Of a stretch of DNA of 64,000 nt, positions 1 through 31,581 are shown in pieces. The stretch is from NCBI GenBank assembly GCA_963715985.1, contig CAVQSP010000012.1:15839-79838 (forward strand), written 5' to 3'. Origin of the DNA: an uncultured Thermoleophilia bacterium (lineage in GTDB: Bacteria; Actinomycetota; Thermoleophilia; UBA2241). Position numbers and translations under genes: made by a program. How positions within the stretch are numbered: the stretch's first letter is position 1; each line of letters opens with the position of its first letter. The notes under the pieces are model-generated. The model ran no database searches, was not told the DNA's origin, and was given only the letters and a program-made list of their open reading frames with translations.

Positions 1-897
1 GGCGCGTTGTAGGAGCTCTGCGAGGTGGCCATGTCGAGCACGGCGGGGCCGATGCCGAAGAGGAAGGGCGCCCCGGGCCGGTGCAGCTGGTGGATGACGA
101 GCCCGAACAGCGACTCGGCCACGCCCTGGCAGGTGTGCCCGGCCACGGTGATGGGCGCCGTGCCGCCGGCCAGCGGCGCCGGCGAGTAGATCGCCGGGAT
201 GCCCTTGTCGGCGCAGAACAGCAGCTTGGCGATGCTCTCCACCGGGTGGCTGAGCGGGCTCACGGGCTCCAGGTACATGGTGAAGTACGGCTTGGCCCGC
301 AACTCCTCCTCGCCGCCGCGCAGCTCGCAGGCCACGCGCCACATCACCTCGAGGTCGCCGGCGTGCTCGGAGGTCATCACCATGGGCTTGGTGGTGTTGC
401 TCGCCATGGCACGGAAGCTCTCGAGGTAGCGAGCGGTGCGGCTCCACGTCGTCGGGGTGGGCGAACGACATCACGAAGTCGATGTTGGGCAGGCGTCGCA
501 GAGACGCGCGGCGCGCCCCACGTCGGCGATGGTGCTCAGGCGGTGCTCGCCGGTCTCGAGGTCGTAGGTGCTGATGAGGTCCGAGCCGGTGCCGAAGTAG
601 CTGTTGGTCCCGCCCAGCGACATCGCCGGCTCGCCCTCGCGACTGAAGACCTCCACGACGGGCGGCGCCGTGGCGCGCGCCTCTTCGACCAGCGCACGCG
701 GGATGCGCACCAGGTGGTCGTCCTGCACCTCGCAGCCCGCGCCGCGCAGCAGCTCGCGGGCCGCCTCGTGGTGCACGCGCATGCCCACGCTCTCGATGAT
801 CTCGAGTGCGGCCTCGTAGATGGCCGTCTTGTCGGCCTCGGTGAGATACGTCAGGCGGCCTGCGCGCGGCCGGGGCTCAGGAGTCAGCGGTCGGCAC
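1..897 (-). CDS. Trimethylamine methyltransferase (MttB) family protein, runs off window edge, frameshifted
   Basis: ORF 471..1112 gives YLTEADKTAIYEAALEIIESVGM...NSYFGTGSD; after frame changes near 490 and 430 it continues NTTKPMVMT...SPAPLAGGTAPITVAG. Close paralog of 24550..26004; GGAGGAGG RBS near 903-910. Confidence 0.85.
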
Positions 898-969
898 GGT
901 GGCCTCCTCCCGTCACGACGGTCTGCTCGTCTGGTCGCGGCCGCCCGCGTCGCGGCCACGGCGGCTGAG

Positions 970-2505
970 TCACAGGCTGCGGACGATGGCGGCGAAGTCG
1001 CCGGCGGCCACAGCCGCGGCCGCGGCCTCCAGCTCCGGCGCCAGGTAGCGGTCGCGACCGAGCGTCGGCGCGAAGCGCCGCACGAGGTCGCGTCCGGCTT
1101 TGGTCCCGACACCGGCCTCGAGCGGCGCCAGCAGGTCGATGGCCTGCGCCGCGCACAGCGCCTCTATGCCCAGCACGGTCTGCGCGTTGCGCAGCACGTC
1201 GAGCAGCTTGAGCGCCGCCGTCATGCCCATGCTCACATGGTCTTCCTGGTCGCCGGAACTGGGGATGGAATCCACGCTGGCAGGGTGGCACAGCACCTTG
1301 TTCTCGGACACGAGGGCCGCGGCGGTGTACTGGGCGATCATGTAGCCGTTGTTGAGCCCGCTGTCCCTGGTGAGGAACGGCGGCAGCTCGGAGAGCGAGC
1401 TGGTGAGCATGCGGAACGTGCGCCGCTCGCTGATGCTGGCGATCTCGCTCACCGCCATGGCCGCGAGGTCGAGCGCCAGGGCGAGCGGCTCCCCGTGGAA
1501 GTTGCCGGCGGAGATGATCTCGCCGCTGTCGGGGAACACGAGCGGGTTGTCGGTGACGGCGTCCACCTCGACGGCGATGACCTCGCGCAGCCAGCGCAGG
1601 GCGTCGCGGCAGGCGCCGTGCACCTGCGGGATGCAGCGCAGCGAGTAGGCGTCCTGCACCTTGTCGCAGTTGAGGTGGCTGAGCATGATGGCGCTGCCCT
1701 CGGTGGCGGCGCGCACGTGGCCGGCCGTCTGCAGCTGGCCGGGGATGGGGCGCAGCGCCTGGATGCGCTCCTGGAAGGGACCCACAGAGGCGCGCAGGCC
1801 TTCCAGGCTCATCGCGCCGATCAGGTCCGCCGAGTCCAGCAGCGCCTCGCCGTCGGCCACCGCCAGGCAGCCGATGGCGGCCATGAACTGCGTGCCGTTG
1901 AGCAGGCTCAGGCCTTCCTTGGCCTCGGGGACGAGGGGCGCGAGCCCTGCCGCCCGCAAGGCGGGCGCGGACGGCTCGCGCCGCCCGTCATGACTGAGCA
2001 GCTCGCCCTCGCCCATCATCGCCAGCACGAGGTGCGCGGACGGGGCGAGATCGCCGGAGGCGCCCAGCGAGCCCCGCGACGGCACCCACGGCACGATGTC
2101 GGCGTTGAGCATGTCGGCGACCATCTGCGCGACCGAGGCGCGCACGCCGGAGTGACCGCGGGCCATGGTGTTCAGGCGGATGACCATGGCGGCGCGCACG
2201 GCGTCACGAGCCAGCGGCGCGCCGACGCCCACGGCGTGGCTGCGCACCAGGTTCTCCTGCAGCTCCTTCACCTTGCCGGCCGGGATGTGCGTGGTGGCCA
2301 GCAGGCCGAAGCCGGTGGTGACGCCGTACGCCACCTGCTCCTCCGCGATGACCCGGGCGATGACCTCGTGAGCGGCGGCGATGCGGTCCAGCGCGGCCCG
2401 GCCGAGGGAGACCTCGGCGCCGCCGCGCGCCACCGCCACCACCTGGTCGATGGTGAGCGGCGCGTCCCCGATCACGACGGGCGGCGGCGCGGACGTCCCG
2501 TTCAC
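970..2505 (-). CDS. hutH: Histidine ammonia-lyase
   Basis: YGVTTGFG, RSHAVG, GSLGASGDLAP (ASG MIO motif), QDAYSLRC, NFHG, QEDHVSM. Confidence 0.95.
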   Translation of the reverse strand: MNGTSAPPPVVIGDAPLTIDQVVAVARGGAEVSLGRAALDRIAAAHEVIARVIAEEQVAYGVTTGFGLLATTHIPAGKVKELQENLVRSHAVGVGAPLARDAVRAAMVIRLNTMARGHSGVRASVAQMVADMLNADIVPWVPSRGSLGASGDLAPSAHLVLAMMGEGELLSHDGRREPSAPALRAAGLAPLVPEAKEGLSLLNGTQFMAAIGCLAVADGEALLDSADLIGAMSLEGLRASVGPFQERIQALRPIPGQLQTAGHVRAATEGSAIMLSHLNCDKVQDAYSLRCIPQVHGACRDALRWLREVIAVEVDAVTDNPLVFPDSGEIISAGNFHGEPLALALDLAAMAVSEIASISERRTFRMLTSSLSELPPFLTRDSGLNNGYMIAQYTAAALVSENKVLCHPASVDSIPSSGDQEDHVSMGMTAALKLLDVLRNAQTVLGIEALCAAQAIDLLAPLEAGVGTKAGRDLVRRFAPTLGRDRYLAPELEAAAAAVAAGDFAAIVRSL

Positions 2506-3386
2506 GGGGCGACCCTCCCGCGCAGGCTCCGCCGCACCAGCGCCACGACCTCGGACGGCGCCTGGGCCACCGGGATGCCGGCGGACTCGAGCGCCCTCTT
2601 CTTGTCGGCCGCCGTACCGGCGCCGCCCTCGATGATGGCGCCGGCGTGGCCCATGCGCTTGCCGGGAGGCGCGCTGAAACCGGCCACGAAGGCCACGACC
2701 GGCTTGGTGACGTGCTCGATCACGTAGGCCGCGGCCGTCTCCTCGTCGTTGCCGCCGATCTCGCCGATCAGCACGATGGCCTCTGTCTCGGGGTCGGCCT
2801 GATAGAGCTCGAGACAGTCCACGAAGCCAAGACCGTGGACGGGGTCGCCGCCCATGCCGACCACGGTGGACTGCCCGATCTCGGCCTCCGTCAGCTTCTG
2901 GACGACCTCATAGGTGAGCGTCCCGGAGCGCGAGACGAGGCCCACCGGGCCGGGCGTGCACACATCGGCGGGCATGATGCCGACATTGGCGCGGCGCGGG
3001 GTCACGAGCCCCGGGCCGTTGGGACCGATGAGCAGCGTGCCGCGCCGCGCGAGGTGAGAGATGACCTCGGCCATGTCCCGCGCCGGGATGTCCTCGGTGA
3101 CGCACACGAGCAGGCGGATGCCGCCGTCCGCCGCCTCGATCATGGCGTCGCGGGCGTAGTGCGCGGGGACGAAGACCACGGAGACGTCGGCGCCGGTCTG
3201 CGCCACGGCATCGGCGACGGTGTCGAAGACCGGGAGGCCGGCGACCTCCTGCCCGGCGCGACCGGGAGACGTGCCGGCGACCACGTTGGTGCCGGCGGCG
3301 CGCATGCGCGCCGCGTGGAAGGTGCCTTCGCGGCCGGTGATGCCCTGCACGAGCACGCGGCTGTGTTCGTCGACGAGGATGGCCAT
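2502..3386 (-). CDS. sucD: Succinyl-CoA synthetase alpha subunit
   Basis: MAILVDEHSRVLVQGITG, SRSGTLTYE, GEIGG, KRMGHAGA phospho-His motif (C-terminal part of ORF 2502..4385). Confidence 0.93.
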   Translation of the reverse strand: MAILVDEHSRVLVQGITGREGTFHAARMRAAGTNVVAGTSPGRAGQEVAGLPVFDTVADAVAQTGADVSVVFVPAHYARDAMIEAADGGIRLLVCVTEDIPARDMAEVISHLARRGTLLIGPNGPGLVTPRRANVGIMPADVCTPGPVGLVSRSGTLTYEVVQKLTEAEIGQSTVVGMGGDPVHGLGFVDCLELYQADPETEAIVLIGEIGGNDEETAAAYVIEHVTKPVVAFVAGFSAPPGKRMGHAGAIIEGGAGTAADKKRALESAGIPVAQAPSEVVALVRRSLRGRVAP

Positions 3387-4567
3387 CAGTCGCCTCCCCC
3401 GGTCGTGGTGGCGGCAGGCAGGTCGCCGCGGGCCGCCGCGACCGCGAGCTCGACGGCCTCGGCCGCGCTGCCGGCGACGGTGACGCCGGCCAGCCCCGCC
3501 TCGGCGAGCACGGAGCGGCCGTCGGCGGCCGCCGTGCCGTCCAGGCGGACGATGACCGGCACGTCCACCTTGCTCTCGCCGAACACCTGCACGAGCCCGC
3601 GCGCGACCTCGTCGCAGCGGGTGATGCCACCGAAGATGCTCACGAGCACGGCGGCCACGTGGCCGCCGGCGAGGATGACCTCGAGGGCGTCGGCCACGAC
3701 CTTGGCACGGGCGCCGCCGCCGATGTCGCAGAAGTCCGCGGCGGCGCCTCCGGCCGCGGCGATCTGGTCGATGGTGCTCATCACGAGTCCGGCGCCGTTG
3801 CCCAGCACGCCGATGTCGCCGTCCAGCTCGACGAACGCGAGCCCGGCCCTGTGGGCCTTCGCCTCGCGTGCATCCGCCGACGCCTCGGCCAGGGCGGCGA
3901 AGTCCGGGTGCCGGAACAGCGCGCTGTCGTCGACGGTGACCTTGCTGTCCAGGCACACCACCACGCCGTCCTGGGTGAGGGCGAGCGGGTTGATCTCGAT
4001 CAGCGTGGCATCGCTCTCGAGATAGAGACTCCAGGCGGCGCGCACGGTGGCGTCCAGGGCACGGCCGGCGTAGGACTTGCGCGGCAGGCCGGCGGCCGCC
4101 AGCACGTCGCGGACCTGGTAGTCGCAGAGGCCCAGCAGCGGATCCACCGGCCGGCGCACGATGGCCGAGGGGTCGCGATGGGCGAGGTCTTCGATGTCCA
4201 CACCGCCCTCGCGCGCGAACACGAGCACAGGGCCGCGGGCGGCGCGGGACAGCGCGATGGAGAGGTACATCTCCCGCGCGATGTCCGCGGCCTCCTCCAC
4301 GAGCACGGCCTCGACCGGCTTGTCCTTGATGGTCATGGCGAGGATCTCGGCGGCCGCAGCCTCCACCTCGTCGCGAGTCTGGCACAGGCGTACGCCGCCG
4401 GCCTTGCCGCGGCCGCCCGTCTTGACCTGCGCCTTGACGACGGCGGGGAGGCCGAGGCGGCGGGTGGCCTCGACGGCCTCCGCCGGCGTGACGGCCACCG
4501 CGCTGGCCAGCACGGGCAGCCCGGCGGCCGCGAACAGCTTCTTGCCCTGATGCTCAAGCAGGTCCAC
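3386..4567 (-). CDS. sucC: Succinyl-CoA synthetase beta subunit
   Basis: MDLLEHQGK, KAQVKTGGRGKAGG, EINPL, NGAGLVM, IFGGITRCD. Confidence 0.93.
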   Translation of the reverse strand: MDLLEHQGKKLFAAAGLPVLASAVAVTPAEAVEATRRLGLPAVVKAQVKTGGRGKAGGVRLCQTRDEVEAAAAEILAMTIKDKPVEAVLVEEAADIAREMYLSIALSRAARGPVLVFAREGGVDIEDLAHRDPSAIVRRPVDPLLGLCDYQVRDVLAAAGLPRKSYAGRALDATVRAAWSLYLESDATLIEINPLALTQDGVVVCLDSKVTVDDSALFRHPDFAALAEASADAREAKAHRAGLAFVELDGDIGVLGNGAGLVMSTIDQIAAAGGAAADFCDIGGGARAKVVADALEVILAGGHVAAVLVSIFGGITRCDEVARGLVQVFGESKVDVPVIVRLDGTAAADGRSVLAEAGLAGVTVAGSAAEAVELAVAAARGDLPAATTTGGGD

Positions 4568-4570
4568 GGG

Positions 4571-5131
4571 CTACGCCTCCAAGGCGAGCCGCCGCCCAAG
4601 GCGGAACGCTTCGCGGTTGAGCTCGCGGAACTTCTCCGGCACGCGGCTCAGCACGGCGTGCTCGACCGCGTCCGCCGGCAGAAAGCCGGCGGACTCCACG
4701 AGCGCGCCGAGCGCCACGATATTGGTGACCACCTTCTTCTTGAGCTCCTCGGCGGCGGCACGCGTGAACGGCGCCCCGCACAGGGTCCAGCGCTCGCTCT
4801 CCGGCCCCAGCTCGATGAGGTCGGAGTCGTAGACCAGCAGCCCGCCGGGACGCATGTCCATGACGTAGGCGCGGTAGGCGCCGGGCGCCAGGCAGAGGTT
4901 CACGTCCGGCGAGAGCACCTCGGGGAAGTCGATCTCCTCGTCGGAGATGATGACCTCGCTCTTGGAGGCCCCGCCGCGCGCGGCGGGGCCGTAGCTCTGC
5001 GTCTGCACCACCTGCTTGCCGAGGTCGGTGGCCGCCTCGGCGACGATGGCGGCGGCCAGCAGGATGCCCTGGCCGCCGGCCCCGGAGAAGCGGATCTCGG
5101 CACGCACGGTGAGGTCGCGGGCCTCAGCCAT
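4571..5131 (-). CDS. 2-oxoacid:ferredoxin oxidoreductase gamma subunit
   Basis: IRFSGAGGQG, QSYGPAARGG, NIVALGAL. Confidence 0.9.
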   Translation of the reverse strand: MAEARDLTVRAEIRFSGAGGQGILLAAAIVAEAATDLGKQVVQTQSYGPAARGGASKSEVIISDEEIDFPEVLSPDVNLCLAPGAYRAYVMDMRPGGLLVYDSDLIELGPESERWTLCGAPFTRAAAEELKKKVVTNIVALGALVESAGFLPADAVEHAVLSRVPEKFRELNREAFRLGRRLALEA

Positions 5132-6035
5132 CCTTGCCTCCTCTGGCAGCGGCCTGGCTCTGCGCCTTCTCGGCCACCTCGGCCAGCGCCGTGACGAACT
5201 CCTTGCGCTCGGCGTGGTGGATGAGACCCACGGGGTACTGGTCGTGCGTACGCGACTCGCCCTCCTCGAACTTGCTCGCCGGCACGGAGCGCTCCTTCTG
5301 CACCTTGAGGAACTCGGCCGGGTCCGGCGTGAGGTTGAAGCGCCCGTAGTAGACGGGGCACACGGCCATCGCCTCGACCATGGAGAAGCCCTTGTGGGCG
5401 ATGCCGCCGGCGATGACGTCCACCAGCTGGCGGTAGCCCCAGGCGGTGCCGCGGGCCACGTAGGTGGCCCCCGCGGCGTGCGCCAGCTCGCAGAGGTCGA
5501 AGGCCGGCTCCACGTTGCCGTACACGCTGGTCGTGGACTTGTCGCCGGTGTGCGTGGTGGGGCTCATCTGCCCGCCGGTCATGCCGTAGATGGAGTTGTT
5601 GAAGACGAGCGCCGTCACGTCGATGTTGCGGCGCGCCGCGTGGATGAAGTGGTTGCCGCCGATGGCGGAGGAGTCGCCGTCGCCCATGGCGACGATGACG
5701 TGCAGCGAGGGGTCGGCGGTCTTGGCGCCGGTGGCCACCGCGAGGGCGCGGCCGTGGGCCGTGTGCACGGTGGAGAACTCGAGGTACTGGGCGATGCGGC
5801 CGCTGCAGCCGATGCCGGCGACCACCACGACCTTCTCCGGGTCCAGGCCGAGGCCGAGGATGGCGTCCACGAGCGCCCGCGTGATGGTGCCGTTGGAGCA
5901 CCCCGGGCACCAGATGGTCCGCGTGGTGCGCAGCCACGGGACGATCTCGCTGGTGGTGTGCAGCTTGATGCGCGGCAGCTTGTAGTCGGCCTGAGGCGTC
6001 GACTCCAGGCTTTGTTCGTCGACGAGGGCGGTCAT
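5124..6035 (-). CDS. 2-oxoacid:ferredoxin oxidoreductase beta (TPP-binding) subunit
   Basis: WCPGC, GIGCS, HGRA, GDGD...NNSIYGMTGGQ. Confidence 0.92.
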   Translation of the reverse strand: MTALVDEQSLESTPQADYKLPRIKLHTTSEIVPWLRTTRTIWCPGCSNGTITRALVDAILGLGLDPEKVVVVAGIGCSGRIAQYLEFSTVHTAHGRALAVATGAKTADPSLHVIVAMGDGDSSAIGGNHFIHAARRNIDVTALVFNNSIYGMTGGQMSPTTHTGDKSTTSVYGNVEPAFDLCELAHAAGATYVARGTAWGYRQLVDVIAGGIAHKGFSMVEAMAVCPVYYGRFNLTPDPAEFLKVQKERSVPASKFEEGESRTHDQYPVGLIHHAERKEFVTALAEVAEKAQSQAAARGGKDG

Positions 6036-7196
6036 GACGCCTCCCAGTCCTGGTAGTAGAACTCGGCTTTGACGAGCTCCTCGATCTCCGCCGGGGTGAT
6101 GAGCTTGCCGTCCACGCGGCCGTAGTCGACGACCTTGCAGCGCCCGCCCACAGCCGCCTGCACCTCCCAGCTCATCTGCTTGATGTTCATCTCCGGCACG
6201 ATGACGGTACGCACCTGCTCGGCCATGCGCTCCACCGACCTCGTGGGGAACGGCCACAGCGTGATGGGCCGCACCATGCCGAGGCGCACGCCCTGGGCGC
6301 GCGCCCACTTGACCACGGCGCGCGCCGAGCGCGCCACGCTGCCGTAGGCGAAGATGGCCACGTCGGCGTCGTGCATCATGTAGTTCTCCACGCGCACGAT
6401 GGCGTCGCGGTGGTGGTAGATCTTCTCGCGCAGGTAGCTGCCCAGGTCGCTGGCCACCTCCGGGTCGCCGGTCTCGGGGGCGCCGCTGCGGCGGTTGTAG
6501 ACGAGGCCGGTGACGTGCACGCGGAAGGGCGATCCCAGCGGCGGCCGCGGGAGGATGTTGTCGAGGTCGCTCATCACGGTGTCGTACTCGTCGGGCTCGC
6601 AGTCCGGGCAGGCCGCGCGTGGCGATGCGCAGGGCGCCCGGCTCGGGCAGCACGACGGCCTCGCGCATGTGGCCCACGAGCGCGTCGGAGAGGATGATGA
6701 CCGGGGTGCGGTACTGCTCGGCCAGGTTGAAGGCCTCCACAGTGAGCGTGTAGCACTCGAGCACGCTGCTGGGCACGAGGGCGATCACGGAGTGTTCGCC
6801 GTGCGTGCCCCAGCGGGCCTGCATGACGTCGCCCTGGGCGGGCTCCGTGGGCAGGCCCGTGGAGGGCCCGCCGCGCATCACGTCGACGATGACGCAGGGG
6901 ATCTGCGCCATGGTCGCGAAGCCGATCATCTCCTGCATCAGGCTGAAGCCCGGGCCGGAGGTGGCGGTGAGCGCCTTGGCGCCGGCCAGGCTGGCCCCGC
7001 ACACGGCGGCGATGGAGGCGATCTCGTCCTCCATCTGGATGAACCTGCCGCCCACCTCGGGCAGCCGCCGGGCCAGGCGCTCGGCGATCTCCGTGGACGG
7101 CGTGATGGGGTAGCCGGCGAAGAAGCGGGCGCCGGCGGCGATGGCTCCCTCGGCGACCGCCTCGTTGCCCTGCAGCAGGATCGGTGTGCCGGCCAT
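6032..7196 (-). CDS. 2-oxoacid:ferredoxin oxidoreductase alpha subunit (frameshift near 6600)
   Basis: GNEAVAEG, AGYPITPSTE, QMEDE, ATSGPG, RGGPSTG; C-terminus in ORF 6032..6577. Confidence 0.9.
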
Positions 7197-7231
7197 GTCA
7201 GTTCTCCTCGTGACGGTGGGCGCAGGCCTCG

Positions 7232-7543
7232 TCATCGGGGCCCTGCGGCGGCGGCCTTGGCTTGCGGCGCCTTGAGCGCCGCGTAGACGCGCTCGGCGTG
7301 GGCCTCGTGCCGACTCGTCCGCCTCCTGCTCGCCCTTCTTCTCGCGGCGCCGCACCTCGATGGCGAAGTCCGGGCAGTGCAGCTCGCAGAGCAGGCACAG
7401 GGTGCAGTCGTCCGGGCGCGCGAGGATGGGCTCACCCATGTCGGTCTCGTCGAACACGTGCTGCGGGCACAGCTCGATGCAGATGCCGCAGGCCTTGCAG
7501 AGGCTGATGTCGAGCGCGAGGGGCGGCGCCTGTTGCTCGGTGT

Positions 7544-7547
<4 letters not shown>
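7232..7547 (-). CDS. 2[4Fe-4S] ferredoxin, delta subunit of the oxidoreductase (frameshift near 7310)
   Basis: [12 protein letters not shown] and [12 protein letters not shown] motifs. Confidence 0.85.
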
Positions 7548-9217
<1,670 letters not shown>

Positions 9218-9324: not shown

Positions 9325-9340
9325 GTCCAGCGAGCTGGAC
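9325..9340. promoter_or_regulatory. Palindromic operator GTCC-N8-GGAC upstream of hutU
   Basis: gtccagcgagctggac; 15 bp from minus-strand TTGAAG (9304-9309). Confidence 0.7.
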
Positions 9341-9383: not shown

Positions 9384-9540
9384 GAGACGGGGATGCCGGG
9401 AGCGCTCGAGCGTCATTCCCGCGACCGGCTTGAGCAGTGTCCGAGTGACGAGTTCAAGCAACGACACCGTTGGAAGTGCCGTTGCTTGAAAGGCCTGTCT
9501 CATAGGTCCTGCCAGGCGCCGCCCGCGAGAGCCGCCGGCA

Positions 9541-9583
<43 letters not shown>

Positions 9584-9605
9584 AGGACCATGCCGGGAAC
9601 GAGTC

Positions 9606-13000: not shown

Positions 13001-13016
13001 GTCTTGGATGCTGGAC
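13001..13016. promoter_or_regulatory. Operator variant GTCT-N8-GGAC between the divergent iclR genes
   Basis: gtcttggatgctggac. Confidence 0.55.
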
Positions 13017-17835: not shown

Positions 17836-17929
17836 TAGATGATCCTGGGTGAGAGCGGTGGGCGCCGGGCGCCCCGGCCGAGAGGCCGGGGCGCCCGGTC
17901 ACACCGGGAACAGCCGTCAGACGGCTTGC

Positions 17930-19776: not shown

Positions 19777-19792
19777 GTCCAGGATGTCGGAC
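19777..19792. promoter_or_regulatory. GTCC-N8-GGAC operator upstream of the ABC operon
   Basis: gtccaggatgtcggac; minus-strand TATGAT -10 at 19730-19735. Confidence 0.65.
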
Positions 19793-20664: not shown

Positions 20665-22796
20665 CCGGCATCAGCGCCCGGCTCGACCTTCTCCACGCGC
20701 ACCTCGACGGACTTCATCAGCGGGAACCCGCTCACGGGGTCGAAGCGGTCGTCGTGCGTCACCAGATTGATGTTGGCCTGCGCCCAGCCGTGCGTCACCT
20801 GCAGGCTGCCGCGGCGGATCTCGTTGGGCGCCATGACCTTGACCGGCACGTCCACGGACGCCGATGCGCGATGTGATCCTCACGAGGTCGCCGTCAGCCA
20901 CCTTCAGCGAGGCGGCGTCGTCCGGGTGCATCTCCACCTCGGGGCCGGGGATGGCGGTGAGAAAGCGTGGGATGTTGCGGAACCTGCTGTGCATGTACAG
21001 CAGCTTGCGCGCCCCCGTGATGAGGACGAAGGGGAACTCCGGGTCGGGCGACTCCAGGTACGCGGGCGAGCGGTACACCGGCAGCTCGTCGAAGCCCCAG
21101 CCCGCCGAGGTACGCCGACACGAACTCGATCCTGCCCGAGGGCGTACCGAAGGTGAGCTCGTCCTGCTCGCGCTCGCCGCCCGTGCCCGCCTCGCCGCCT
21201 CCCTCGCCCGCGCCGGCAGCGTCGCTCGCGGCGCCCGCGCCGGCGTACACGACGCCCTCGGGATGCGCCGCCAGGTCCTCGTAGGTGAGCCCCGACGACT
21301 CGAGCAGCCAGCGGTTGAGCGCGGTCTCGTCCTCCCAGGGGAAGAAGTCGGCGGCGCCCAGGCGCGCGGCCAGGTCGCGCCAGAACTCGTACTCGCCCTG
21401 CACGTCCGGCAGGCTGAGGACCTGGTTGGTGAGGGTGATGACCTGGTGCTTGGCGTGCGCGTGCAGCTCGGTGCGCTCGAGGAACGAGGCGGCCGGCAGC
21501 ACGTAGTCCGCCAGGGCGGCCGTCTCCGTCATGAACAGGTCGCGGACCACGAGCAGGTCGAGGGCCTCGAACGCCTCGCGGATGCGCGTGGAGTTGGCGT
21601 TGGTCACCACCGGGTTGGCGCCGGTGACGATCATCGCCCGCAGCGGGTAGGGGTCGTCGTGAAGGATGGCGTCCACCGCACTCATCGTGTGGCACTCCTG
21701 GCGCAGGTCGTAGAGCACGGGGAAGCGCTCCGCGCCGATGGGGCCCAGCTCGCGGAGCGGGAGCTCGTCGTACACGGTGAGCTCGCGCAGCGCCGGCGCC
21801 GCCTTGAAGCGCGTGCCGCCGGCTTGGCCGATGGTGCCCAGCAGCGCGTCGAGCATGGCCACCGCGCGGATGTTGTTGACGCCGTTCTCGTGGTGCTCGA
21901 GACCGTTGCCGGCGTACAGAGCCACGCGCGGGGCGGCGGCGGCCATGGCGCGGGCCATCGCCCGCACGGTGGCCGCGTCCACGCCCGTCTCGCGCTCTAC
22001 CACCTCGGGGGTGAAGGCCTTGGCGTACTCGGCCGACCTGCGGGAAGCCGAGCGTGTATCTGGCCACGAACTCCTTGTCGTAGGCGCCGCTCTCGATCAG
22101 CAGGTGGACGATGCCCCACGCCAGGGCGCCGTCGGTGCCGGGGCGCACCGCCGCGTGCAGGTCGGCGCGCCGCGCCATGGCCGAGAGGCGCGGGTCCACC
22201 ACGATGAGGGTGGCGCCTTTGCGGCGCGCGTCGCTGACGTAGCTGGTCATGTTGGGGTGCGCGTAGGGCAGGTTGGCGCCCCAGATCAGCACGCACTCGG
22301 CGTTCTCCAGGTCCGGCGTGGGCCAGCCGCCGTCCACCAGCGTGAAGCCCGCGTACCGGGCCGCGAAGCACTGCGAGTCGTTGGAGAAGTAGTTGGGGCT
22401 GCCGATGGCGTGGATGAAGCGCCGCGCCAGCGTCTCCTGCTGGCCGAAGCCGATGGCCTCGCCCTTCCACACGCTGAGGCTGCGGAGACCGTACTGCTCG
22501 CCGATCGCCACGAGGCGCGCGGCGATCTCGTCGAGCGCCTGCGCCAGCGGGATCTCCTCCCAGCCGCCTTCGACGCGCTTGAGCGGCGCGAGCAGGCGGT
22601 CCGGGTGATAGACCATGTCGACCGCGGCGCGCGCCTTGACGCACAGGCGGCCGCGGTTCCAGGCGTGGTGCTCGTTGGCGGTGATGTCGACGATGCGCCC
22701 GTCCTCCAGGTGCACCTCGATGCCGCAGCGGTCGTCGCACATGCGGCAGAGGGTGCGCACGGTCGTGCGTTCGGCGGCCACGTCAGCGCTCCCCAC
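20661..22796 (-). CDS. Molybdopterin (DMSO reductase family) oxidoreductase catalytic subunit, several frameshifts
   Basis: CRMCDDRC...LCVK FeS motif, WGAN, VDPR, PGTDGA, GANP, MTETA..AD, C-terminal molydop-binding domain (MHPDDA); no Tat leader. Confidence 0.85.
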
Positions 22797-23268
22797 GGCC
22801 CGGACGCGCGAGGCGCCGCAAGCTGATGTCCAGCGCCTCGCGGCGCGCGTCGGCGGCCTCGTCGGCGTCTACGAACTGCAGCGCCCCCGAGGTGCAGAAG
22901 CGCACGCAGTCGGGGTCGCCGCCGCAGAGGTCGCACTTGCGGCTCACACCCAGCTCGCCGTCGAAGTGGATGTTGCCCATGGGGCAGGCGAGCAGGCACA
23001 TCTTGCAGCCGGCGCAGTGGTCGCGGTCGATCTCCACGGCGCCCGTGCTCTCGTCGCGGCTGATGGCGCCGGCCGGGCACACCTCCAGGCACCAGGCCTC
23101 GGAGCAGTGCATGCAGGTGAGCGGGATGCAGGCGTGGTCCTCGGCGTAGAAGTTCACGCGGATGAGCGACGCCGAGCGCGCGAAGTCGCCGCTCTGGCGA
23201 AAGGCGCAGGCGTACTCGCAGTCGCGGCAGGCCACGCACAGGTCGGGATCGGCGACGACGATGCGCAC
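22783..23268 (-). CDS. 4Fe-4S dicluster electron-transfer subunit
   Basis: Four Cys clusters (CVACRDC, CMHC, CAGCKMC, CDLC). Confidence 0.9.
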   Translation of the reverse strand: MRIVVADPDLCVACRDCEYACAFRQSGDFARSASLIRVNFYAEDHACIPLTCMHCSEAWCLEVCPAGAISRDESTGAVEIDRDHCAGCKMCLLACPMGNIHFDGELGVSRKCDLCGGDPDCVRFCTSGALQFVDADEAADARREALDISLRRLARPGRGER

Positions 23269-23271
23269 GAC

Positions 23272-24547
23272 TCAGCCTCCTCTCGCAGTGCCGGCCAGTC
23301 CCGCCGCCCGCAGGTCGCGCCGGCGGGCCGGGCTCGCCAGGTCTCTTCCCTCGATGAACGAAAGCAACTCGGGCAGCGCCCGTCGCCAGCGCACGTAGGG
23401 GCGCAGGCGGCCGAGCACCACGGCGCCCTCGGTGCCGCCGAGGGCGACGGCGCCGGCCGGCACGCCGCCGCGGCTCACCAGCTTGAAGTACTCGACGCCG
23501 GCGACGTCGCGCAGCAGCGTGACGTCGTCGCCGTCCTCTTCCACGAAACGACCGAGCGAGGCCACAGTCAAGCCGAACATCTCCGTGACGTTCATGCTGA
23601 GGCTGCCGCGGTACGTGACGCCGGCGCCGGCGAGGTTGGCGCCGGCCACCTTGCCCTGCTCCACCGCCGTGGGCCACAGCGCGTGGATCTCCGGCGGTCC
23701 GCCGGCGGCCGTGGGCCCGCGCGTCACGTCGCCGGCCGCGTACACGCCGGGGACCGACGTCTGCATGGTGGCGTCCACGGGGATGCCGGGCGCGCCCGGC
23801 TCGAGGGCCTGCTCCAGCAGCTCGTCGTTGGGGCGTGCGCCCGTGGCGACGATGACGGCGTCCACGGTGAACGGGTCGAGGCCGCCGGCGCAGACGCGCA
23901 CGGCGCCGCCCTCGTCCTCCAGGGCCTCCGTGCTGCGTGCCCGTGTGGATGGGCACGCCGTAGCTCTCGATGCGCTCGTGGAGCAGGCGCGCGGCCGGAG
24001 CGTCCAGCACGCGCGGCATGATGCGCCGGTCGAGCTCGACGACGGTCACCTCCAGGCCGCGGTAGCGCGCCGCCCACGCGGCCTGCAGCGCCACGAACCC
24101 TGAACCGAGCACGAGCGCCCGCGCCCCGGGCCGCAGCAGCGGGTCGAGGCGCACGGCGTCGGCGAGGGTCCAGAGGTGGTGGACGGCGGGGTGGTCGAGC
24201 CCGGGTATCGGGGGCCGCGCAGGCCGCGAGCCGGTGGCCAGCAGCAGGCTGTCGAAGGCCAGACGGCGCCCGCCGGCCAGCGCCAGCGTGCGGGCGCCCA
24301 CATCGAGGCCGTCGACGCGCACCCCGGAGACGAGGTCGGCGCCCATGCGCGAGTAGTACTCGGGGCCGCGGATCACGAGGCCGTCACGCGACACCTTGCC
24401 GCGCAGGAAGTACGGCAGCAGCACGCGGGAGTACGCCGGTCCGGGCTCCTCGCTGATCAGCGTGACCGCGGCGTCGCGCTCGTGGCGGCGGAAGCTCTCG
24501 AGCGCGCTCAGCGCGGCCGCGCTGTTGCCGACGATGGCGAGGTGCAC
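23272..24547 (-). CDS. FAD/NAD(P)-dependent oxidoreductase (frameshift near 23930)
   Basis: IVGNSAAA, LLATGS, GSGFVA, TSVPGVYAAGD. Confidence 0.85.
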
Positions 24548-24549
24548 CG

Positions 24550-26004
24550 TCAGCGCCCCTCGCCGCCCGCGAAGCCGGCCACCAGTTCGTCCGCGCGGGC
24601 GGCCACGTCCGCCGGCAGCGGCGGGACCTCGTGCGTGGCGAGCAGCTCGGCGGCCTTGCGCCGCGCCTTGGCGGCGAGGTCGAGGCCGCCGCCGGCCAGC
24701 CAGTTCTCGCGGCCGTCCCGGTTGAGGATCGTGGGGCGCCACTGCACCTCTCTCATGTGGCGCCGCGTGTGCTTGCTGCCCATGAAGTGGCCGCCGGGGC
24801 CGGTCTGCGCGATGACGTCCACGGCCAGGGTCTCGGCATCGACCTCCACGCCGCGCAGCAGCCGCCGGTTGGAGGCGATGAACTCGTCCACCATCACGAT
24901 GCTCTCCAGCGAGCCGGTGAGGCCGAAGTCCAGGTAGCCCACGTCGTGGGCCAGGTTGGAGCCGGCCTGCATGGCCAGCAGCGTCATCTGATTGGCCTCC
25001 ATGCCCATCTGCGCGTCCAGCACCTGGCTGTCGCTGGTCCCTGCGTTCCCCCAGTTGGGCAGGTCCAGCCACTTGGCCATCTCCACGGCACACATGTAGC
25101 CCATCTGGTAGCCGAGGTCGTTGTAGCTGGACTGGGCCGTGGCGATGTCCAGCACGGCCGAGCCGATGCCGAAGAGGAACGGCGCGCCCGGGACGCGCAG
25201 CTGGTGCATCACGAGGCCGAACAGGCACTCCGCGATGCCCTGCGCCGTGTGCCCCGCCACGGTGATGGGCGCCGTGGCCCCCGCCAGCGGCGCCGGCGAG
25301 TAGTTGGTCGGCACGCCGGCGTCGGCGCAGAGCAGCAGCTTCTCCACGCTGTCCGGGGGGTGCACGAGCGGGCTGGTGGGCTCGTTGTACATGATGAAGT
25401 ACGGCTTCTCCCGCAACTCGTCTGCGCCGCCGCGCAGCGCCCGCGCGATCTCGATCATCACGGCCAGGTCGCGCGCGTTCTCGGCCGTCATCACCAGCGG
25501 CTTGGTGGTGTTCTGCAGCATCGCGAGGAAGCTCACCAGGTACGCCCTGTGCGGGTCCTCGTCGGTGGGGTGGGCCGAGCTCATCACGAAGTCGATGTCC
25601 GGCAGCGCGTCGCACAGGCGGGCCGCGCGGCGCACGTCCTCGAGCACGCTGGGCCGGTGCTCCCCGGTCTCGAGGTCGTAGGTGGACATGAGGTCGGAGC
25701 CGGTGCCGAAGTAGCTGTTGTAGCCGCCCAGCTCCATGGCCGGCTCGCCCGCGCGGTCGTACACGTCGATCACGGACGGCGCGGTGCCGCGCGCCTGCTC
25801 CACGAGCTCCCGCGGGATGAGGATGCGGTCCTCCGTGGTCAGCGTGCAGCCCGCCTCGAGCAGCATCGCTTTGGCTTCGTCGTGGTGGACCTGCATGCCG
25901 ACGGCGCCGAGGATCTCGAGGACGGCCTCGTAGATGTCGAGCTTGGCCTGTTCGCTGAGGAAGCTCAAGTGGCCGATGCGAGATGCGTTGCGAAGGGTCT
26001 TCAC
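24550..26004 (-). CDS. MttB-family methyltransferase (non-pyrrolysine)
   Basis: FGTGSD, NTTKP, GATAPITVAG, AGTSDSQVLDAQ, GPGGHF; no in-frame TAG. Confidence 0.9.
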   Translation of the reverse strand: MKTLRNASRIGHLSFLSEQAKLDIYEAVLEILGAVGMQVHHDEAKAMLLEAGCTLTTEDRILIPRELVEQARGTAPSVIDVYDRAGEPAMELGGYNSYFGTGSDLMSTYDLETGEHRPSVLEDVRRAARLCDALPDIDFVMSSAHPTDEDPHRAYLVSFLAMLQNTTKPLVMTAENARDLAVMIEIARALRGGADELREKPYFIMYNEPTSPLVHPPDSVEKLLLCADAGVPTNYSPAPLAGATAPITVAGHTAQGIAECLFGLVMHQLRVPGAPFLFGIGSAVLDIATAQSSYNDLGYQMGYMCAVEMAKWLDLPNWGNAGTSDSQVLDAQMGMEANQMTLLAMQAGSNLAHDVGYLDFGLTGSLESIVMVDEFIASNRRLLRGVEVDAETLAVDVIAQTGPGGHFMGSKHTRRHMREVQWRPTILNRDGRENWLAGGGLDLAAKARRKAAELLATHEVPPLPADVAARADELVAGFAGGEGR

Positions 26005-27045: not shown

Positions 27046-27105
27046 GTCCAGCGTGCTGGACGGCGCCCCGCCTGGGTGTGAATCCCCTCGAGGCTGACCT
27101 ATAGT
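27046..27105 (+). promoter_or_regulatory. GTCC-N8-GGAC operator plus promoter of the lyase-pckA-hisC operon
   Basis: gccGTCCagcgtgctGGACggc, 15-bp gap, TGTGAA-N17-TATAGT. Confidence 0.7.
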
Positions 27106-27184
27106 CCTGACCGCGGGACGGGGCCGCCGCTTGCGGTGCCCTCGCCCTGCTGCCGGCTTCGGGCTCAGTCTGGAAGGAGACTCC

Positions 27185-28709
27185 GTGACCATCATCCTGG
27201 ACGGCGCGTCGCTGACCGTCGAGAAGCTCGTGCGCATCGCTCGTGACGGCGAGACGGTCGAGCTCGACCCCGCCGCGCTCGAGCGCATCAAGGTGTGCCG
27301 CGCCATGCTCGAAGAGAAGATCGTGGCCCGCGAGATCATGTACGGCACCAACACCGGCATCGGCGAGTTCTCGGAGATCGTGCTCGACGACGACCAGGTG
27401 CAGCAGTTCCAGCGCTTCCTCGTGTACAACCACGCCGCCGGCATCGGCGAGCCGGCGCCGATCGAGGTCGTGCGCGCCGCCATGGCGGCGCGCGTCAACG
27501 TCCACGCGCACGGCAACTCGGGCAACCGCCCGCGAGATCACGCAGACGCTGGTCGAGCTGCTCAACAAGGGCGTCACGCCGGTCATGAGCTCCAAGGGCT
27601 CGGTGGGCGCCTGCGGCGACCTCGCCCCCATGGCCCAGATGGCGCTGGTCATGATGGGCGAGGGCGACTCGTTCTACCAGGGCGAGCGCATGCCCAGCCG
27701 CGAGGCGCTCGAGCGCGCCGGCATCCCGGTCCCCGGGCTGGAGGCGCGCGACGGCCTGGCCACGATCAACGGCTCGAACGTCCTCACGGGCATGAGCGCG
27801 CTGCTCTGCTGGGACGCCGACCGCTGGCTGCGCCAGGCCGAGATCGCCGCGGCGATGAGCCTCGAGGCGCTGCTCGCCAACCTCAAGCCGTACAACAGCA
27901 AGCTGCACGAGCTGCGCGGCTTCTCCGGCGCCGTGCGCAGCGCGGCAGCCATCCGCGCCTGCATCCAGGACAGCGACCTCGCCACCGGCAAGATCAAGAC
28001 CAAGGTGCAGGACGCCTACTCGATGCGCTCGACGCCGCAGGTCGTCGGGGCCGCTCACGACGCGCTCAAGTGGGCGAAGAGCCAGGTGGAGATCGAGCTC
28101 AACGGCGTCGGCGACAACCCGATCTGGGTACCCGAGGAGAAGCTGACGCTGACCGGCGCGAACTTCCAGGGCACGCCGGTCAGCCTCCCCATGGAGATGG
28201 TCGGGCAGGCCATCACCATGGTCAGCGTGCTCAGCGAGCGCCGGCTCAACCGCATGGAGAACACCGCGACGAGCCAGGGTCTGCCGGACTTCCTGACGCC
28301 CAACCCCGGCTTCTACAGCGGCCTCATGCTCAGCCAGTACACCGCCGACATGCTCATCACCGAGCAGCGCATCCTGTCGGCGCCGGCCAGCACCATGAGC
28401 ATCCCGGCGGCGGCCGACCAGGAGGACTTCGTCTCGATGGGCATGAACACCGCCCTCAAGAACCGCCAGATCCTCGAGAACGCCTACGGCGTGCTCGGCA
28501 TCGAGCTCATGGCCGCGGCTCAGGCGCTCGACTTCCGCGACTTCACGCCCGGCAAGGGCGTGCGCGCCGCCAAGGCCGTCATCCGCAGGCACGTCGACCA
28601 CCTCGACGTGGACAGGCCGCTCTTCCCGGATCACAACGCCATGGCCGCGCTTGTGGCGTCGTGCGAGATCCTGGACGCCGTGGAGGCGGCCGTCGGCCCG
28701 CTGGGCTGA
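27185..28709 (+). CDS. HAL/PAL-family ammonia-lyase with Ala-Cys-Gly motif (frameshift near 27530)
   Basis: YGTNTGIG, NHAAG, GSVGACGDLAP, QDAYSMR, GANFQG, QEDFVSM. Confidence 0.88.
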
Positions 28710-28786
28710 GAGCGGCGCACACTCGCGCAGGCCGACGGCGGGCCCCCCTGGGGCGGCCCGCCGTCCCGCGTCGACCGGGAGGCACG

Positions 28787-30447
28787 ATGGACGAGAAGAC
28801 GGTCCACGCCCAGCTCGCCGAAGTGGGTCTGCGCGTGGGCACGGTGCATCGCAACCTCCCATCGCCAGAGCTCACGGCGCGCTCCCTGGCGCGCAAGGAG
28901 GGCATCCTCGCCGCCAACGGCGCCCTGGTGGTGACCACCGGCGAGCGCACGGGGCGCTCGCCGCAGGACCGCTACATCGTGGCCGATGAGGGCGCCGCCG
29001 GCGTAGCCTGGGGCGGCGCCAACCAGCCCTGCTCGACGGAGGTGTTCGACCACCACCTGCGGCTGGCGAGCGCGTTTCTGCGCGGCCGCGATGCCTACGT
29101 GTTCGACGGCTTCGTGGGCGCCGAGCCCGCGTACCGCCTGCCGGTGCGAGTGGTGGCCGAGGCGACGTGGCACGCGCTGTTCGCGCACACGCTGCTGGTA
29201 CGCCCGGAGCCCGTCGACCTCGAGGGCTTCGAGCCGGGCTTCACGGTCATCGCCTGCGGCGCTCTCCGGGCGGACGACGCGGCGGCCGCGGGCGCGTCCC
29301 TGGGCTTCGCGACGAGCGCGGGCGCGCCCCTGGCTCCGCGGCGGGCGCCGGACCCGGCGCCTCCGGCACGTTCGTCGGCATCTCGTTCAGCCGCCGCCTC
29401 GTGCTCATCCTCGGCACCGAGTACGCCGGCGAGATCAAGAAGGCGCTCTTCTCCGTCATGAACCACCTGCTGCCGCCGCGAGACGTGCTGCCCATGCACT
29501 GTTCGGCCACGGCCGGCAAGAACGGCGACGTGGCCTTGTTCTTCGGTCTCTCCGGCACCGGCAAGACCACGCTCTCGGCCGATCCCACGCGGCGCCTCAT
29601 CGGCGACGACGAGCACGGCTGGAGCGACCACGGCGTGTTCAACTTCGAAGGCGGCTGCTACGCCAAGGTCATCAGGCTGTCGGCGCGCGCCGAACCGCAG
29701 ATCTTCCAGGCCATCCGCTTCGGCTCCGTGCTCGAGAACGTGGTGGTCGACCCGCAGACGCGAGCCATCCATTGGGACGACGACTCCATCACCGAGAACA
29801 CGCGCGCCACCTACCCCGTTGATCACATCCCGGGCGCCGTCGTCACGGGCGAGGGCGGCACGCCCCGCAACGTCTTCTTCCTGGCAGCAGACGCCTACGG
29901 CGTGCTGCCGCCCATCGCCCGGCTCACCCCGGAGATGGCGAGCTACCACTTCCTCTCCGGGTTCACCGCCAAGGTGGCCGGCACCGAGGCGGGCGTCGAC
30001 GAGCCGGCGCCCACCTTCTCCGCCTGCTTCGGAGCGCCCTTCATGCCGCGCGACCCGGTGACGTACGCCACCATGCTCGCGGAGCGGCTGGCGCACGCGC
30101 CCACGCACTGCTGGCTGGTGAACACGGGCTGGTCGGGCGGGCCGTACGGCGTGGGCAAGCGCATGCGCATCTCGCTCACGCGCAACCTGCTCAAGGCGGC
30201 GCTCAGCGGCTCGCTCGAACACACGCGCATGACGCCGCACCCGGTGTTCGGATTCCTGGTGCCGGAGCACTGCCCGCACGTGGCGCCACGCTTTCTGGAC
30301 CCGCGCTCGACGTGGACCGACGGCGAAGCCTACGACCGGCAGGCGGCGGCGCTGGCGCAGCACTTCGCCGCCAATTTCGCGCAGTTCGAGGGGCGCGTGC
30401 CGCCCGCGGTCGCGGCCGCCGGCCCGCGTCTGGACACAGGAGGATGA
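28787..30447 (+). CDS. pckA: Phosphoenolpyruvate carboxykinase (ATP), frameshift near 29330
   Basis: [45 protein letters not shown]. Confidence 0.93.
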
Positions 30448-31496
30448 CCATGCCCCGCCGCCCGCCGTCCCCGCTGCCCCAGGTGGCCGCGCTCACAGCG
30501 TACGTCCCCGGCCGCCCGTCGCCGAGCGAGGCCGGCAGCCTGGCCTCCAACGAGTCGCCCTTCGGCGCGTCTCCGGCCGTGCAGGCCGCCCTCGCCGGAG
30601 CCGCGGCCCGCATCCACCGCTACCCCGACCCGCTGGCCGCGGAGCTGTGCGCGGAGCTTGCCCGCCTGCACGGCGTGGGGCCCGACAACGTCCTCGTCGC
30701 CAACGGCTCGGACGAGGTCATCTACCTGCTCGTGATGGCCTACGCCGCCGGCGGGCGCGCCGTGTGCGCCGACCCGCCGTACCGCCTGGACGACATCGTG
30801 CCGCAGATCATGGGCGGCTACGGTCGTCAAGGTGCCGCTCAAGGACTGGGCGCACGACCTGGAGGCGATGGCCGCCGTGGAGGCCGACATCGCCTTCGTC
30901 GTCAATCCCCACAACCCCACGGGAACGACCGTCTCCCCGGAGGCGCTGCGGCGACTTCGCCGAGCGCAGCCCGGCCCGGCTCGTCGTCGTCGACGAGGCG
31001 TACATCGACTTCGCCGACGACCCGGCGGCCGCCAGCATGGTCCGCGAGACCGGCGGCAACATGGTGGTGATGCGCACCTTCTCCAAGGCCTACGGCCTTG
31101 CAGGTGCGCGCGTCGGCTACCTGGTCGGCGCGGCAGAGGTCATCGACGCGCTGCGCAAGATCCGCCCTCCCTTCTCCGTGAGCTCGCCCACGCAGGCGGC
31201 GGCACTGGCGGCGCTCGCCGACACGGAGCACCTCGCGTTCGTGCGCGAGCAGACGCGCCTCGGGCGCGAGCGCCTGCGCGAGCGTCTTCACGGCCGCCGG
31301 CTACGAGGTGGTGCCGTCGCAGGCGAACTTCGTGCTCGTCGTGGCGCCGGACGCCGAGGAACTGGCGGCGCGCCTCGAGCGCGGCGGGGTGAGCGTCCGC
31401 CTGGGCGCCAACCTCGACCTGCCGGGCACGGTGCGCGTCACGGTGGCGTCCGACGAGGGTTTCGCGCTGCTCGAAGGCGGCGCTGCGCGAGAGTAG
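30444..31496 (+). CDS. Histidinol-phosphate aminotransferase-like class I/II PLP enzyme, frameshifted
   Basis: [43 protein letters not shown]. Confidence 0.85.

Positions 31497-31504: not shown

Positions 31505-31581
<77 letters not shown>

Follow-up and report, generated by a model that had tools for sequence, protein, structure and literature searches.

The 64,000 nucleotide stretch of DNA analyzed here (hereafter, the window) comes from the genome of an uncultured Thermoleophilia bacterium, where it spans positions 15839-79838 of contig C12 (G000:C12:15839-79838). The genome (4.35 Mb, 22 contigs, 70% GC) is 88.8% complete and 7.3% contaminated. The window carries genes for three MttB-family methyltransferases (MttB-A, MttB-B, and MttB-C) and a corrinoid protein, interleaved with genes for histidine utilization (Hut). 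The latter encode the histidine ammonia-lyase (HAL) HutH, the urocanase HutU, and a second, divergent HAL-family lyase (HAL2). These corrinoid-dependent, pyrrolysine-free MttBs are probably an entry step into histidine utilization, demethylating a methylated histidine for the Hut enzymes.

Given the high GC content, genes were called via third-position GC, and they were named with Pfam and NCBIfam (Table 1). A first-pass annotation made from the sequence alone had listed the MttBs, the corrinoid protein, hutU, hutH, a second HAL, an importer, and two IclR regulators, and all of them are present by these models. MttB-A, MttB-B, the corrinoid protein, HutH, and HutU are intact. Frame changes in mid-domain affect MttB-C, the alpha subunit of a 2-oxoacid:ferredoxin oxidoreductase (OFOR), a molybdopterin oxidoreductase, a class IV aminotransferase, HAL2, and a phosphoenolpyruvate carboxykinase (PEPCK). 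We read most of these breaks, short of proof, as indels of an indel-rich assembly, because some shifts compensate each other, a wetland contig has an extra base at one of them, and split matches of the same kind were found by tblastn in the loci of relatives from long-read metagenome-assembled genome (MAG) projects.

Table 1. Features of the mttB-hut region, with positions in the window.
Feature	Position	Strand	Remarks
MttB-C	~1-900	-	B-type paralog; PF06253 matches on 3-407 and 471-788
HutH	970-2505	-	TIGR01225 655.6 bits (cut-off 539.15); GASGD (Ala-Ser-Gly of MIO, 4-methylideneimidazole-5-one) at residue 149
SucD	2502-3386	-	Succinate-CoA ligase; NF004230 423.8 bits (cut-off 336)
SucC	3386-4567	-	Succinate-CoA ligase; NF001913 428.9 bits (cut-off 370)
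OFOR	4571-7547	-	Pfam POR, TPP_enzyme_C, PFOR_II, POR_N, Fer4
OFOR gamma	4571-5131	-	
OFOR beta	5124-6035	-	
OFOR alpha	6032-~7150	-	
OFOR N-terminal 4Fe-4S part	to 7547	-	
HutU	7544-9217	-	TIGR01228 964.1 bits (cut-off 375)
Perfect palindrome GTCCAGCGAGCTGGAC	9325-9340	.	~110 nt upstream of hutU; candidate hut operator
Corrinoid protein, MtgC/MttC-like	9664-10287	-	PF02310 and PF02607; DLHDIG (DxHxxG) at residue 98
MttB-A	10333-11775	-	480 aa; PF06253 226.8 bits, profile positions 30-492 of 500
IclR1	11990-12865	-	HTH_IclR and IclR_C; start from translation; co-directional with mttB-A
Degenerate palindrome	13001-13016	.	3 mismatches; IclR1/IclR2 divergent region
IclR2	13178-14047	+	HTH_IclR and IclR_C
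ATP-binding cassette (ABC) importer, Dpp/Opp-type	14112-19591	-	
Fused double ATPase	14112-15926	-	Part of the importer
Permeases	15923-16870 and 16867-17835	-	Part of the importer
Family-5 binding protein	17930-19591	-	Twin-arginine (TAT)/lipobox; from Pfam and signal region
Degenerate palindrome	19777-19792	.	3 mismatches; upstream of the binding-protein gene
Class IV aminotransferase, molybdopterin oxidoreductase, 4Fe-4S protein, Pyr_redox_2 protein	19825-~24400	-	
MttB-B	24550-25968, extendable to 26004	-	PF06253 266.3 bits, profile positions 32-489 of 500
S-adenosylmethionine (SAM) methyltransferase	26236-~27000	-	
Perfect palindrome GTCCAGCGTGCTGGAC	27046-27061	.	~125 nt upstream of HAL2
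HAL2, divergent HAL-family lyase	27185-28709	+	PF00221; Ala-Cys-Gly MIO-type motif; frameshift near 27524-27531
PEPCK and aminotransferase fragments	after HAL2	+	

Linkage of mttB and hut genes

The linkage that the first-pass annotation saw in the window is conserved in relatives. An alignment of 19 MttB-A homologs was used to collect 35 loci (numbered L) from a collection of species-representative genomes, and hut, corrinoid, regulator, and transporter genes were mapped by tblastn within flanks of 10 kb. At 33 of the 35 loci the homolog is at least 45% identical, and 28 of these 33 have a urocanase and/or HAL gene in the flanks (urocanase, 24/33). Three of the 33 (L008, L027, and L035) are contigs that end at the mttB gene. 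No hut genes flank the homologs at the two outgroup loci, which are 31% and 26% identical. Two further loci from another family (g58; L057 and L058) are also hut-linked. Among 201 sampled genomes of the class, G000 included, 13 have a match at E ≤1e-100. They include 10 of the 21 other genomes of the same genus and two of the 35 genomes of one other family; no match at this level was found in the other families searched within the sample.

The linked genes occur in five gene orders spanning two phyla, represented by Thermoleophilia and by Desulfobacterales/Desulfarculaceae MAGs, the latter being relatives of sulfate reducers. The first order, that of the window, is binding protein/ABC importer, IclR, IclR, MttB-A, corrinoid protein, HutU, OFOR, SucCD, HutH, and in two loci of this type (L005 and L009) HutI follows HutH. 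The second is HutU, HutI, Fch, FtcD, (HutH), MttB. It is found on contig C3 of the same genome, as a module of a urocanase-like gene, HutI, cyclodeaminase, FtcD, HutH, and an MttB with 60% identity to MttB-A. The six genes share a strand, and an IclR gene is divergent from them. The third, deltaproteobacterial order is Fch, FtcD, HutI, HutH, HutU, MttB, then a polar amino-acid ABC system, with a GntR regulator and a second MttB upstream of the hut operon. In the fourth (A3), HAL2 is divergent from MttB, corrinoid protein, IclR, and B-type MttBs. The fifth (g58) runs mttB-A, corrinoid protein, hutH, then IclR, hutU, hutI, fch, ftcD, and a binding protein that is 70% identical to the family-5 binding protein of the window. 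Each g58 cluster pairs a single MttB and corrinoid protein with a complete set of hut genes, and the ~9 kb upstream of it contain no further MttB.

The gaps from MttB to hutH or hutU are often <250 nt. In both g58 loci, and in most loci of types A1 and A3, the corrinoid-protein gene comes immediately after that of MttB-A; the corrinoid protein of the window scores 184 bits on MtgC-type models, under their cut-off. Upstream of MttB-A, relatives have orthologs of the ABC importer (69-83%; L004, L005, L007, L009, and L017) and of IclR1, and IclR2 orthologs (69-72%) occupy the same place as in the window. A gene for an Ldh_2-family dehydrogenase lies divergent beside MttB-A in both g58 genomes (L057:7974-8957 and L058:10979-11953) and was not seen adjoining MttB-A elsewhere. 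The Ldh_2 family includes N-methyl-amino-acid dehydrogenases.

Directly downstream of hutH in the window, less than 120 nt from its stop at 970, begins MttB-C. The placement and orientation noted in the first-pass annotation thus stand; the gene itself is broken by indels. MttB-C is cut by the left window edge, extends to G000:C12:15296, and matches MttB-B by tblastn in two pieces at 63-65% identity. The in-frame stop of the gene, a TGA at 468-470, lies between two compensating 1-base frameshifts, and one wetland DNA contig has an extra base behind position 492. Recoding of this stop as pyrrolysine was considered and ruled out, as it is a TGA between the compensating shifts and far from the pyrrolysine position.

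MttB-like genes are abundant in this genome, with 59 loci (53 spanning at least 1200 nt) and 20 corrinoid-protein-like loci in 4.35 Mb (tblastn); 14 of the MttB loci are on C3 and 7 on C12. The linkage could be incidental, or a matter of bookkeeping, if these MttBs demethylate ordinary betaines and lie near hut genes through a common tetrahydrofolate (THF) one-carbon pool or sheer MttB abundance. In its favor, the FtcD and cyclodeaminase of the hut operons are THF-dependent, and two A-clade loci (L028 and L030) are without hut genes. We consider this explanation unlikely. Only one clade among dozens of paralogs is hut-linked (see below), and the link persists in a second phylum, in five gene orders, and often at the short distances given above. 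Its clade-specific conservation across phyla puts the linkage above chance. The differing gene orders and the second phylum are a stronger argument than the locus counts.

Phylogeny and active-site residues of the MttB paralogs

A FastTree phylogeny was built from 84 MttB open reading frames, out of 113 hits, that match at least 380 positions of a hidden Markov model built from the alignment. The tree omits broken genes and shorter matches, and includes 30 of the 59 MttB loci of this genome. All hut-linked MttBs fall in one clade (34 rows, support 99) that comprises A1 (13), A2 (4), deltaproteobacterial (10), and A3 (7) sequences. The other 28 paralogs of this genome in the tree all lie outside of it. 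The clade that contains MttB-B (11 rows) has as its sister the MttB found upstream of the deltaproteobacterial hut operons. A third clade, D, recurs beside B-type genes. Downstream of hutH in this genome are a B type (MttB-C), a broken B type, a D type, and one further MttB, and B-B-D or B-D arrays are also found in L014, L032, and L036.

The characterized relatives MtgB and MttB were compared through the bit scores of alignments to their PDB chains. MttB-A and MttB-B align near full length with the Methanosarcina barkeri MttB (7XCL; 191.8 and 187.9 bits), which is the best-scoring solved relative of both. Against MtgB (9YCE) they score 120 and 178 bits. The first-pass annotation was right that the two complete MttBs have no amber codon: the pyrrolysine position is Met320 in MttB-A and Thr311 in MttB-B. 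By clade, the position is occupied by M or W in A, T in B, C in B-delta, and V or A in D. On TIGR02369, the model for the pyrrolysine type, the two score 348.5 (MttB-A) and 354.8 bits, under the cut-off of 525.

A 2026 paper (PMC13080624) describes five characterized pyrrolysine-free members, with glycine betaine, proline betaine, carnitine, gamma-butyrobetaine, and phosphocholine as substrates. The ligand residues of MtgB given there are Y97, R312, H348, and F356, and R312, which binds the acidic group of the substrate, is stated to be conserved throughout the members with a known function (PMC13080624, section 9). We mapped these positions by pairwise sequence alignment, with no structure behind it. 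In MttB-A they correspond to T98, E315, Y350, and S358, and in MttB-B to S91, W306, H341, and G349. The R312 position is Glu in A1 (13/13) and the deltaproteobacterial A type (10/10), Leu in A2 (4/4), Thr, Ser, or Ala in A3, and Trp in B (11/11). Arg is found solely in the D type (5/5), in which the F356 position is mostly aromatic.

HutH, HutU, and the second lyase

The HAL family includes ergothionase, an enzyme without MIO, and urocanase relatives act on thiourocanate. A lyase could act first, freeing trimethylamine from hercynine or ergothioneine for consumption by MttB. NCBIfam has models for thiourocanate hydratases (NF058530 and NF058531), and the scores of the type-2 and deltaproteobacterial urocanases on the urocanase model are close to those on the S-methyl-thiourocanate model. 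However, HutH is above its equivalog cut-off, and HutU fails both thiourocanate hydratase models (707 bits against a cut-off of 930, and 744 against 880). The type-2 and deltaproteobacterial urocanases, at 592-650 bits on the thiourocanate models, are also under cut-off. All HALs in the linked clusters keep the MIO tripeptide, mostly ASG and in every case ASG or ACG, and the MttBs here all lack pyrrolysine and stay under the TIGR02369 cut-off. Because the lyases keep MIO and the MttBs are without pyrrolysine, a lyase-first route is very improbable. The MIO motifs argue for hut-linked HALs that are ammonia-lyases needing a free amine, contrary to a trimethylamine-releasing lyase, and the first-pass annotation had likewise set the locus apart from that route. 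Ergothioneine as a substrate is unlikely because HutU fails the thiourocanate hydratase models; no desulfurizing gene was seen either.

The urocanases of C3-type and deltaproteobacterial loci (L024:8086-9819, L015:3867-5456, and L002:13743-14789) form a divergent branch, with 634-644 bits on the hutU model (964 for the HutU of the window) and 632-650 bits on the S-methyl-thiourocanate hydratase model.

HAL2 is ~40% identical to HutH and scores 388 bits on the hutH model with its truncated frame. Its orthologs (85-94%) adjoin A3-type MttB, corrinoid protein, IclR, and B-type MttB in L031-L036. The MIO tripeptide is ACG in HAL2 (27597 region) and in three of five orthologs (L033, L034, and L036), and ASG in L031 and L032. 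As the same ACG recurs in these three, it is a natural variant and not a sequencing error. An S143C mutant of HAL forms MIO. A fourth HAL-family gene (G000:C3:102709-108190; L003 6710-12190) is 33% identical to HutH and frameshifted. It reads GAS-DL, in which the Gly of MIO is absent, and directly adjoins two further MttB genes.

A palindrome associated with hut genes

The palindrome GTCCAGC-N2-GCTGGAC has three perfect copies in the 4.35 Mb genome, as compared to ~0.06 expected from base composition by our arithmetic, and each is beside hut genes. Two are in the window (Table 1), and the third is at C3:81136 (L002:5137), beside the C3 hut-mttB module. This third copy, at 2.3 kb from the C3 MttB, has a HisC-like aminotransferase gene (L002:5240-6358) downstream and an enolase-superfamily gene on its other side. 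Since all three perfect copies are found in such places, we regard the palindrome as a hut-associated operator, and it is a candidate for tying the hut units together. Allowing up to three mismatches, the window has 21 matches against 9.0 expected, a number reached in 0 of 100 shuffles. The degenerate site at 19777 and the site at hutU have GGAC(A/G)CGTTTT in common.

The single shared operator of the first-pass annotation is confirmed in part. The copies at hutU and HAL2 are perfect, those at the binding protein and IclR genes have three mismatches, and none was found directly upstream of mttB-A or mttB-B. In relatives, sites with up to two mismatches are scattered, with a 1-mismatch site just upstream of hutU in L031, and the palindrome is not generally conserved upstream of hutU in A1-type loci. 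A search for exact 12-mers across ten intergenic regions gave only GC-rich chance pairs. A second motif, GTCCCGATTCYGGA, was rejected, with 11 matches against 11.9 expected and thus no enrichment.

The proposed route

Demethylation of a methylated histidine that feeds Hut is the most economical reading of the comparative genomics. In such a route, the Dpp/Opp-type ABC system would import an N-methylated histidine derivative, and MttB-A would transfer a methyl from it onto the neighboring corrinoid protein in its Co(I) state. The B- and D-type paralogs here would probably serve other methylation states or isomers. A pterin-binding methyltransferase would then move the methyl to THF. Free L-histidine would be deaminated by the MIO-type HutH and hydrated by HutU, and HutI and FtcD would give glutamate and formimino-THF. 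The OFOR and succinyl-CoA ligase encoded between hutU and hutH would take the carbon to succinate with a gain of ATP. The IclR-type regulators and the GTCCAGC-N2-GCTGGAC operator would link the hut units.

The window itself does not contain HutI or a formiminoglutamate-processing enzyme. They are encoded elsewhere in the genome, as is the methyltransferase from corrinoid to THF, in keeping with the first-pass annotation, which had noted all three as absent from the window. HutI and FtcD on C3 score 369.9 bits (cut-off 298) and 389.6 bits (cut-off 221), and a second hutI/ftcD pair was found at C14:400072-402068 (tblastn only). Genes for a RamA-type activase and a pterin-binding methyltransferase are side by side on C11; a further pterin-binding gene is on C13 and a second activase on C7. 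The OFOR alpha gene is frameshifted near 6580-6620. The NCBIfam matches of the OFOR are all below cut-off, and the best match of the beta subunit is a 2-oxoglutarate ferredoxin oxidoreductase. Together, the OFOR and SucCD fit a conversion of Hut-derived glutamate to succinate with ATP gain.

Several points weigh against this reading. Mere adjacency of an mttB gene is weak evidence because the genome has 59 MttB-like loci. Two of the 33 loci, L028 and L030 of the A clade, are free of hut genes within 10 kb even though their flanks are complete, and the survey counts overstate independence because many loci are from closely related MAGs. The mttB gene directly after hutH is broken in this assembly. 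Perfect palindromes at hutU and HAL2 do not by themselves imply co-regulation of mttB-A or mttB-B. Many wetland metagenomes contain sequence words of the window, with half or more of them in 12 runs, and contigs from RNA-labeled runs match mttB-A and hutU at 90-95%. These matches are evidence of neither transcription nor this organism, as the four sequence runs aligned to the locus, two of those 12 among them, are contigs, which cannot reveal transcription. Both complete MttBs lack the R312 arginine of MtgB, which PMC13080624 reports as conserved in all characterized members. According to the same paper, each characterized pyrrolysine-free MttB uses a quaternary amine and takes off one methyl. 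If one methyl is removed, hercynine would end as dimethylhistidine, which an MIO lyase should refuse.

With these points considered, the coupling of MttB to Hut is well supported at the level of sequence by conservation, phylogeny, and the shared hut operator. The core proposal of the first-pass annotation is strongly supported by comparative genomics, and the evidence on its substrate is mixed. We infer the direction of flow, the methylated histidine as the substrate, and its identity.

Candidate substrates

Two kinds of substrate have roughly equal weight: the N-alpha series (hercynine and its partly demethylated forms), and a singly methylated histidine, with the methyl at N-pi or N-tau or as N-alpha-monomethylhistidine. 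The first-pass annotation had favored hercynine or ergothioneine. Because the MIO-type HutH needs a free alpha-amine, a route from hercynine means three successive demethylations, two of them on non-quaternary amines, and different MttB paralogs would strip the three N-alpha methyls in turn to give histidine. The recurrence of three subfamilies (A, B, and D) together beside hut/HAL genes suggests such a division of labor, as do the B-B-D arrays that follow hutH both here and in L014, L032, and L036. The D type alone has Arg at the R312 position, as a betaine-type first step would predict. The quaternary amine of hercynine also matches the substrates of the characterized pyrrolysine-free members (PMC13080624). 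Yet the g58 clusters combine a single MttB and corrinoid protein with the full hut set, and the deltaproteobacterial loci have only A-type and B-like MttBs, together with a binding protein of the cationic-amino-acid type. Nor do the abstract and sections 7 and 9 of PMC13080624 offer an example of an MttB without pyrrolysine that uses a tertiary or secondary amine. We hold the hercynine route as a possibility, with considerable doubt.

A singly methylated histidine would require one demethylation by MttB-A to give histidine, with the B type taking the other isomer. This would explain the compact hut clusters with a single MttB and agrees with the need of the hut genes for a free alpha-amine, as all HALs carry the MIO motif. 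The transporter in the deltaproteobacterial loci is of the LAO/HisJ type, and the solved relatives of its family-3 binding protein bind cationic amino acids. By alignment, neither MttB-A nor MttB-B has the Arg that binds the carboxylate in MtgB or its two aromatics for cation-pi contacts. The score of MttB-A against the pyrrolysine MttB (191.8 bits) is above that against MtgB (120). A protonated N-methylimidazole gives a neutral imidazole leaving group, which is our own chemical inference. Against these stand the lack of a non-quaternary substrate among the members without pyrrolysine described in PMC13080624, and a residue mapping that is from pairwise sequence alignment alone. In addition, Glu315 varies in the A clade (Leu in A2; Thr, Ser, or Ala in A3), and the three-subfamily arrays are left unexplained. 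This substrate too is a tentative proposal. The MttB-A clade might, on the same tentative footing, be the first pyrrolysine-free corrinoid methyltransferase to act on a non-quaternary N, either that of the ring in 1- or 3-methylhistidine or that of N-alpha-methylhistidine.

The transporter of the window does not help to choose among these substrates. The relatives of its family-5 binding protein in the PDB are generic peptide/nickel/opine binders (≤100 bits) and give no clue to the ligand.

Other features of the window

Between the ABC importer and MttB-B is a unit (19825-24400) that may be formate dehydrogenase-like. The molybdopterin oxidoreductase in it is heavily frameshifted, and its Fe4S4, Molybdopterin, and Molydop_binding domains are spread over at least four frames. 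No homolog of the SAM methyltransferase was found in the fetched loci at E 1e-8, and we therefore place it outside the conserved set. The 446 nt spacer between the corrinoid-protein gene and hutU contains a tandem 9-base repeat (9540-9585) with four copies of GTCGCCGGT. A search of Rfam at the gathering threshold found only a tRNA gene, and no riboswitch or known RNA in this spacer. The tRNA gene (31508-31581, minus strand, 69.1 bits) is just beyond the hut-mttB region. Further along, at 42000-54000, the GC content is 65-68%, as compared to ~71%, and the ORFs are short and weakly coding.

Comparison with known systems and implications

The MtgB/MtgC system of Desulfitobacterium hafniense (2QNE, 9YCE; relatives MtpB, MtcB, MtyB, and MthB) shares with the window a pyrrolysine-free PF06253 methyltransferase and an adjacent DxHxxG corrinoid protein. 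In both, a separate pterin-binding methyltransferase presumably hands the methyl on to THF, and a RamA-type activase takes part. The window MttBs differ in their low similarity to MtgB and, by alignment, in their ligand residues. Their genes also sit in operons that degrade the carbon skeleton, whereas the MttB systems described so far are not known to use the demethylated product. The pyrrolysine MttB/MttC of M. barkeri aligns with the window MttBs over almost their full length, but these have no amber codon, have Met or Thr at the pyrrolysine position, and reach 348-355 bits on TIGR02369 as compared to 525.

The formimidoyltransferase branch of the Hut pathway is represented by HutH and HutU in the window and by HutI and FtcD on C3, all above equivalog cut-offs. 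Unlike the Hut pathway as known, the operons here include MttB and a corrinoid protein, and the window type has the OFOR and succinyl-CoA ligase between hutU and hutH. Catabolism of ergothioneine uses HAL- and urocanase-family enzymes on an N-trimethylated histidine derivative. The window differs from it in lyases that keep MIO, in a HutU that fails the thiourocanate models, and in a corrinoid methyltransferase instead of trimethylamine release. The first-pass annotation knew of no described MttB-Hut pathway, and our full-text literature search for MttB or corrinoid proteins with histidine catabolism or Thermoleophilia found no description of the linkage, with most subscription journals beyond its reach.

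Singly methylated histidines are available from methylated proteins, e.g., the methyl-coenzyme M reductase of wetland methanogens, which carries methylhistidine, or actin, and from anserine. In wetlands and sediments, the sources include such protein-derived methylhistidines and hercynine from the ergothioneine of fungi and actinobacteria. If our reading is true, the route would be an oxygen-independent fate for methylated histidines in these environments, and a new anaerobic route from them to the one-carbon pool and succinate. It would also be the first MttB step whose demethylated skeleton enters full catabolism.

Most of the very large pyrrolysine-free MttB family is without a known substrate, and PMC13080624 lists only five. 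The clade-specific link to hut genes across phyla offers a concrete and cheaply testable substrate hypothesis for one MttB clade. If the substrate is non-quaternary, it would revise the chemistry thought possible for the MttB family without pyrrolysine. Thus, the MttB-Hut route would add a new substrate class and a new pathway context for MttB-family corrinoid methyltransferases.

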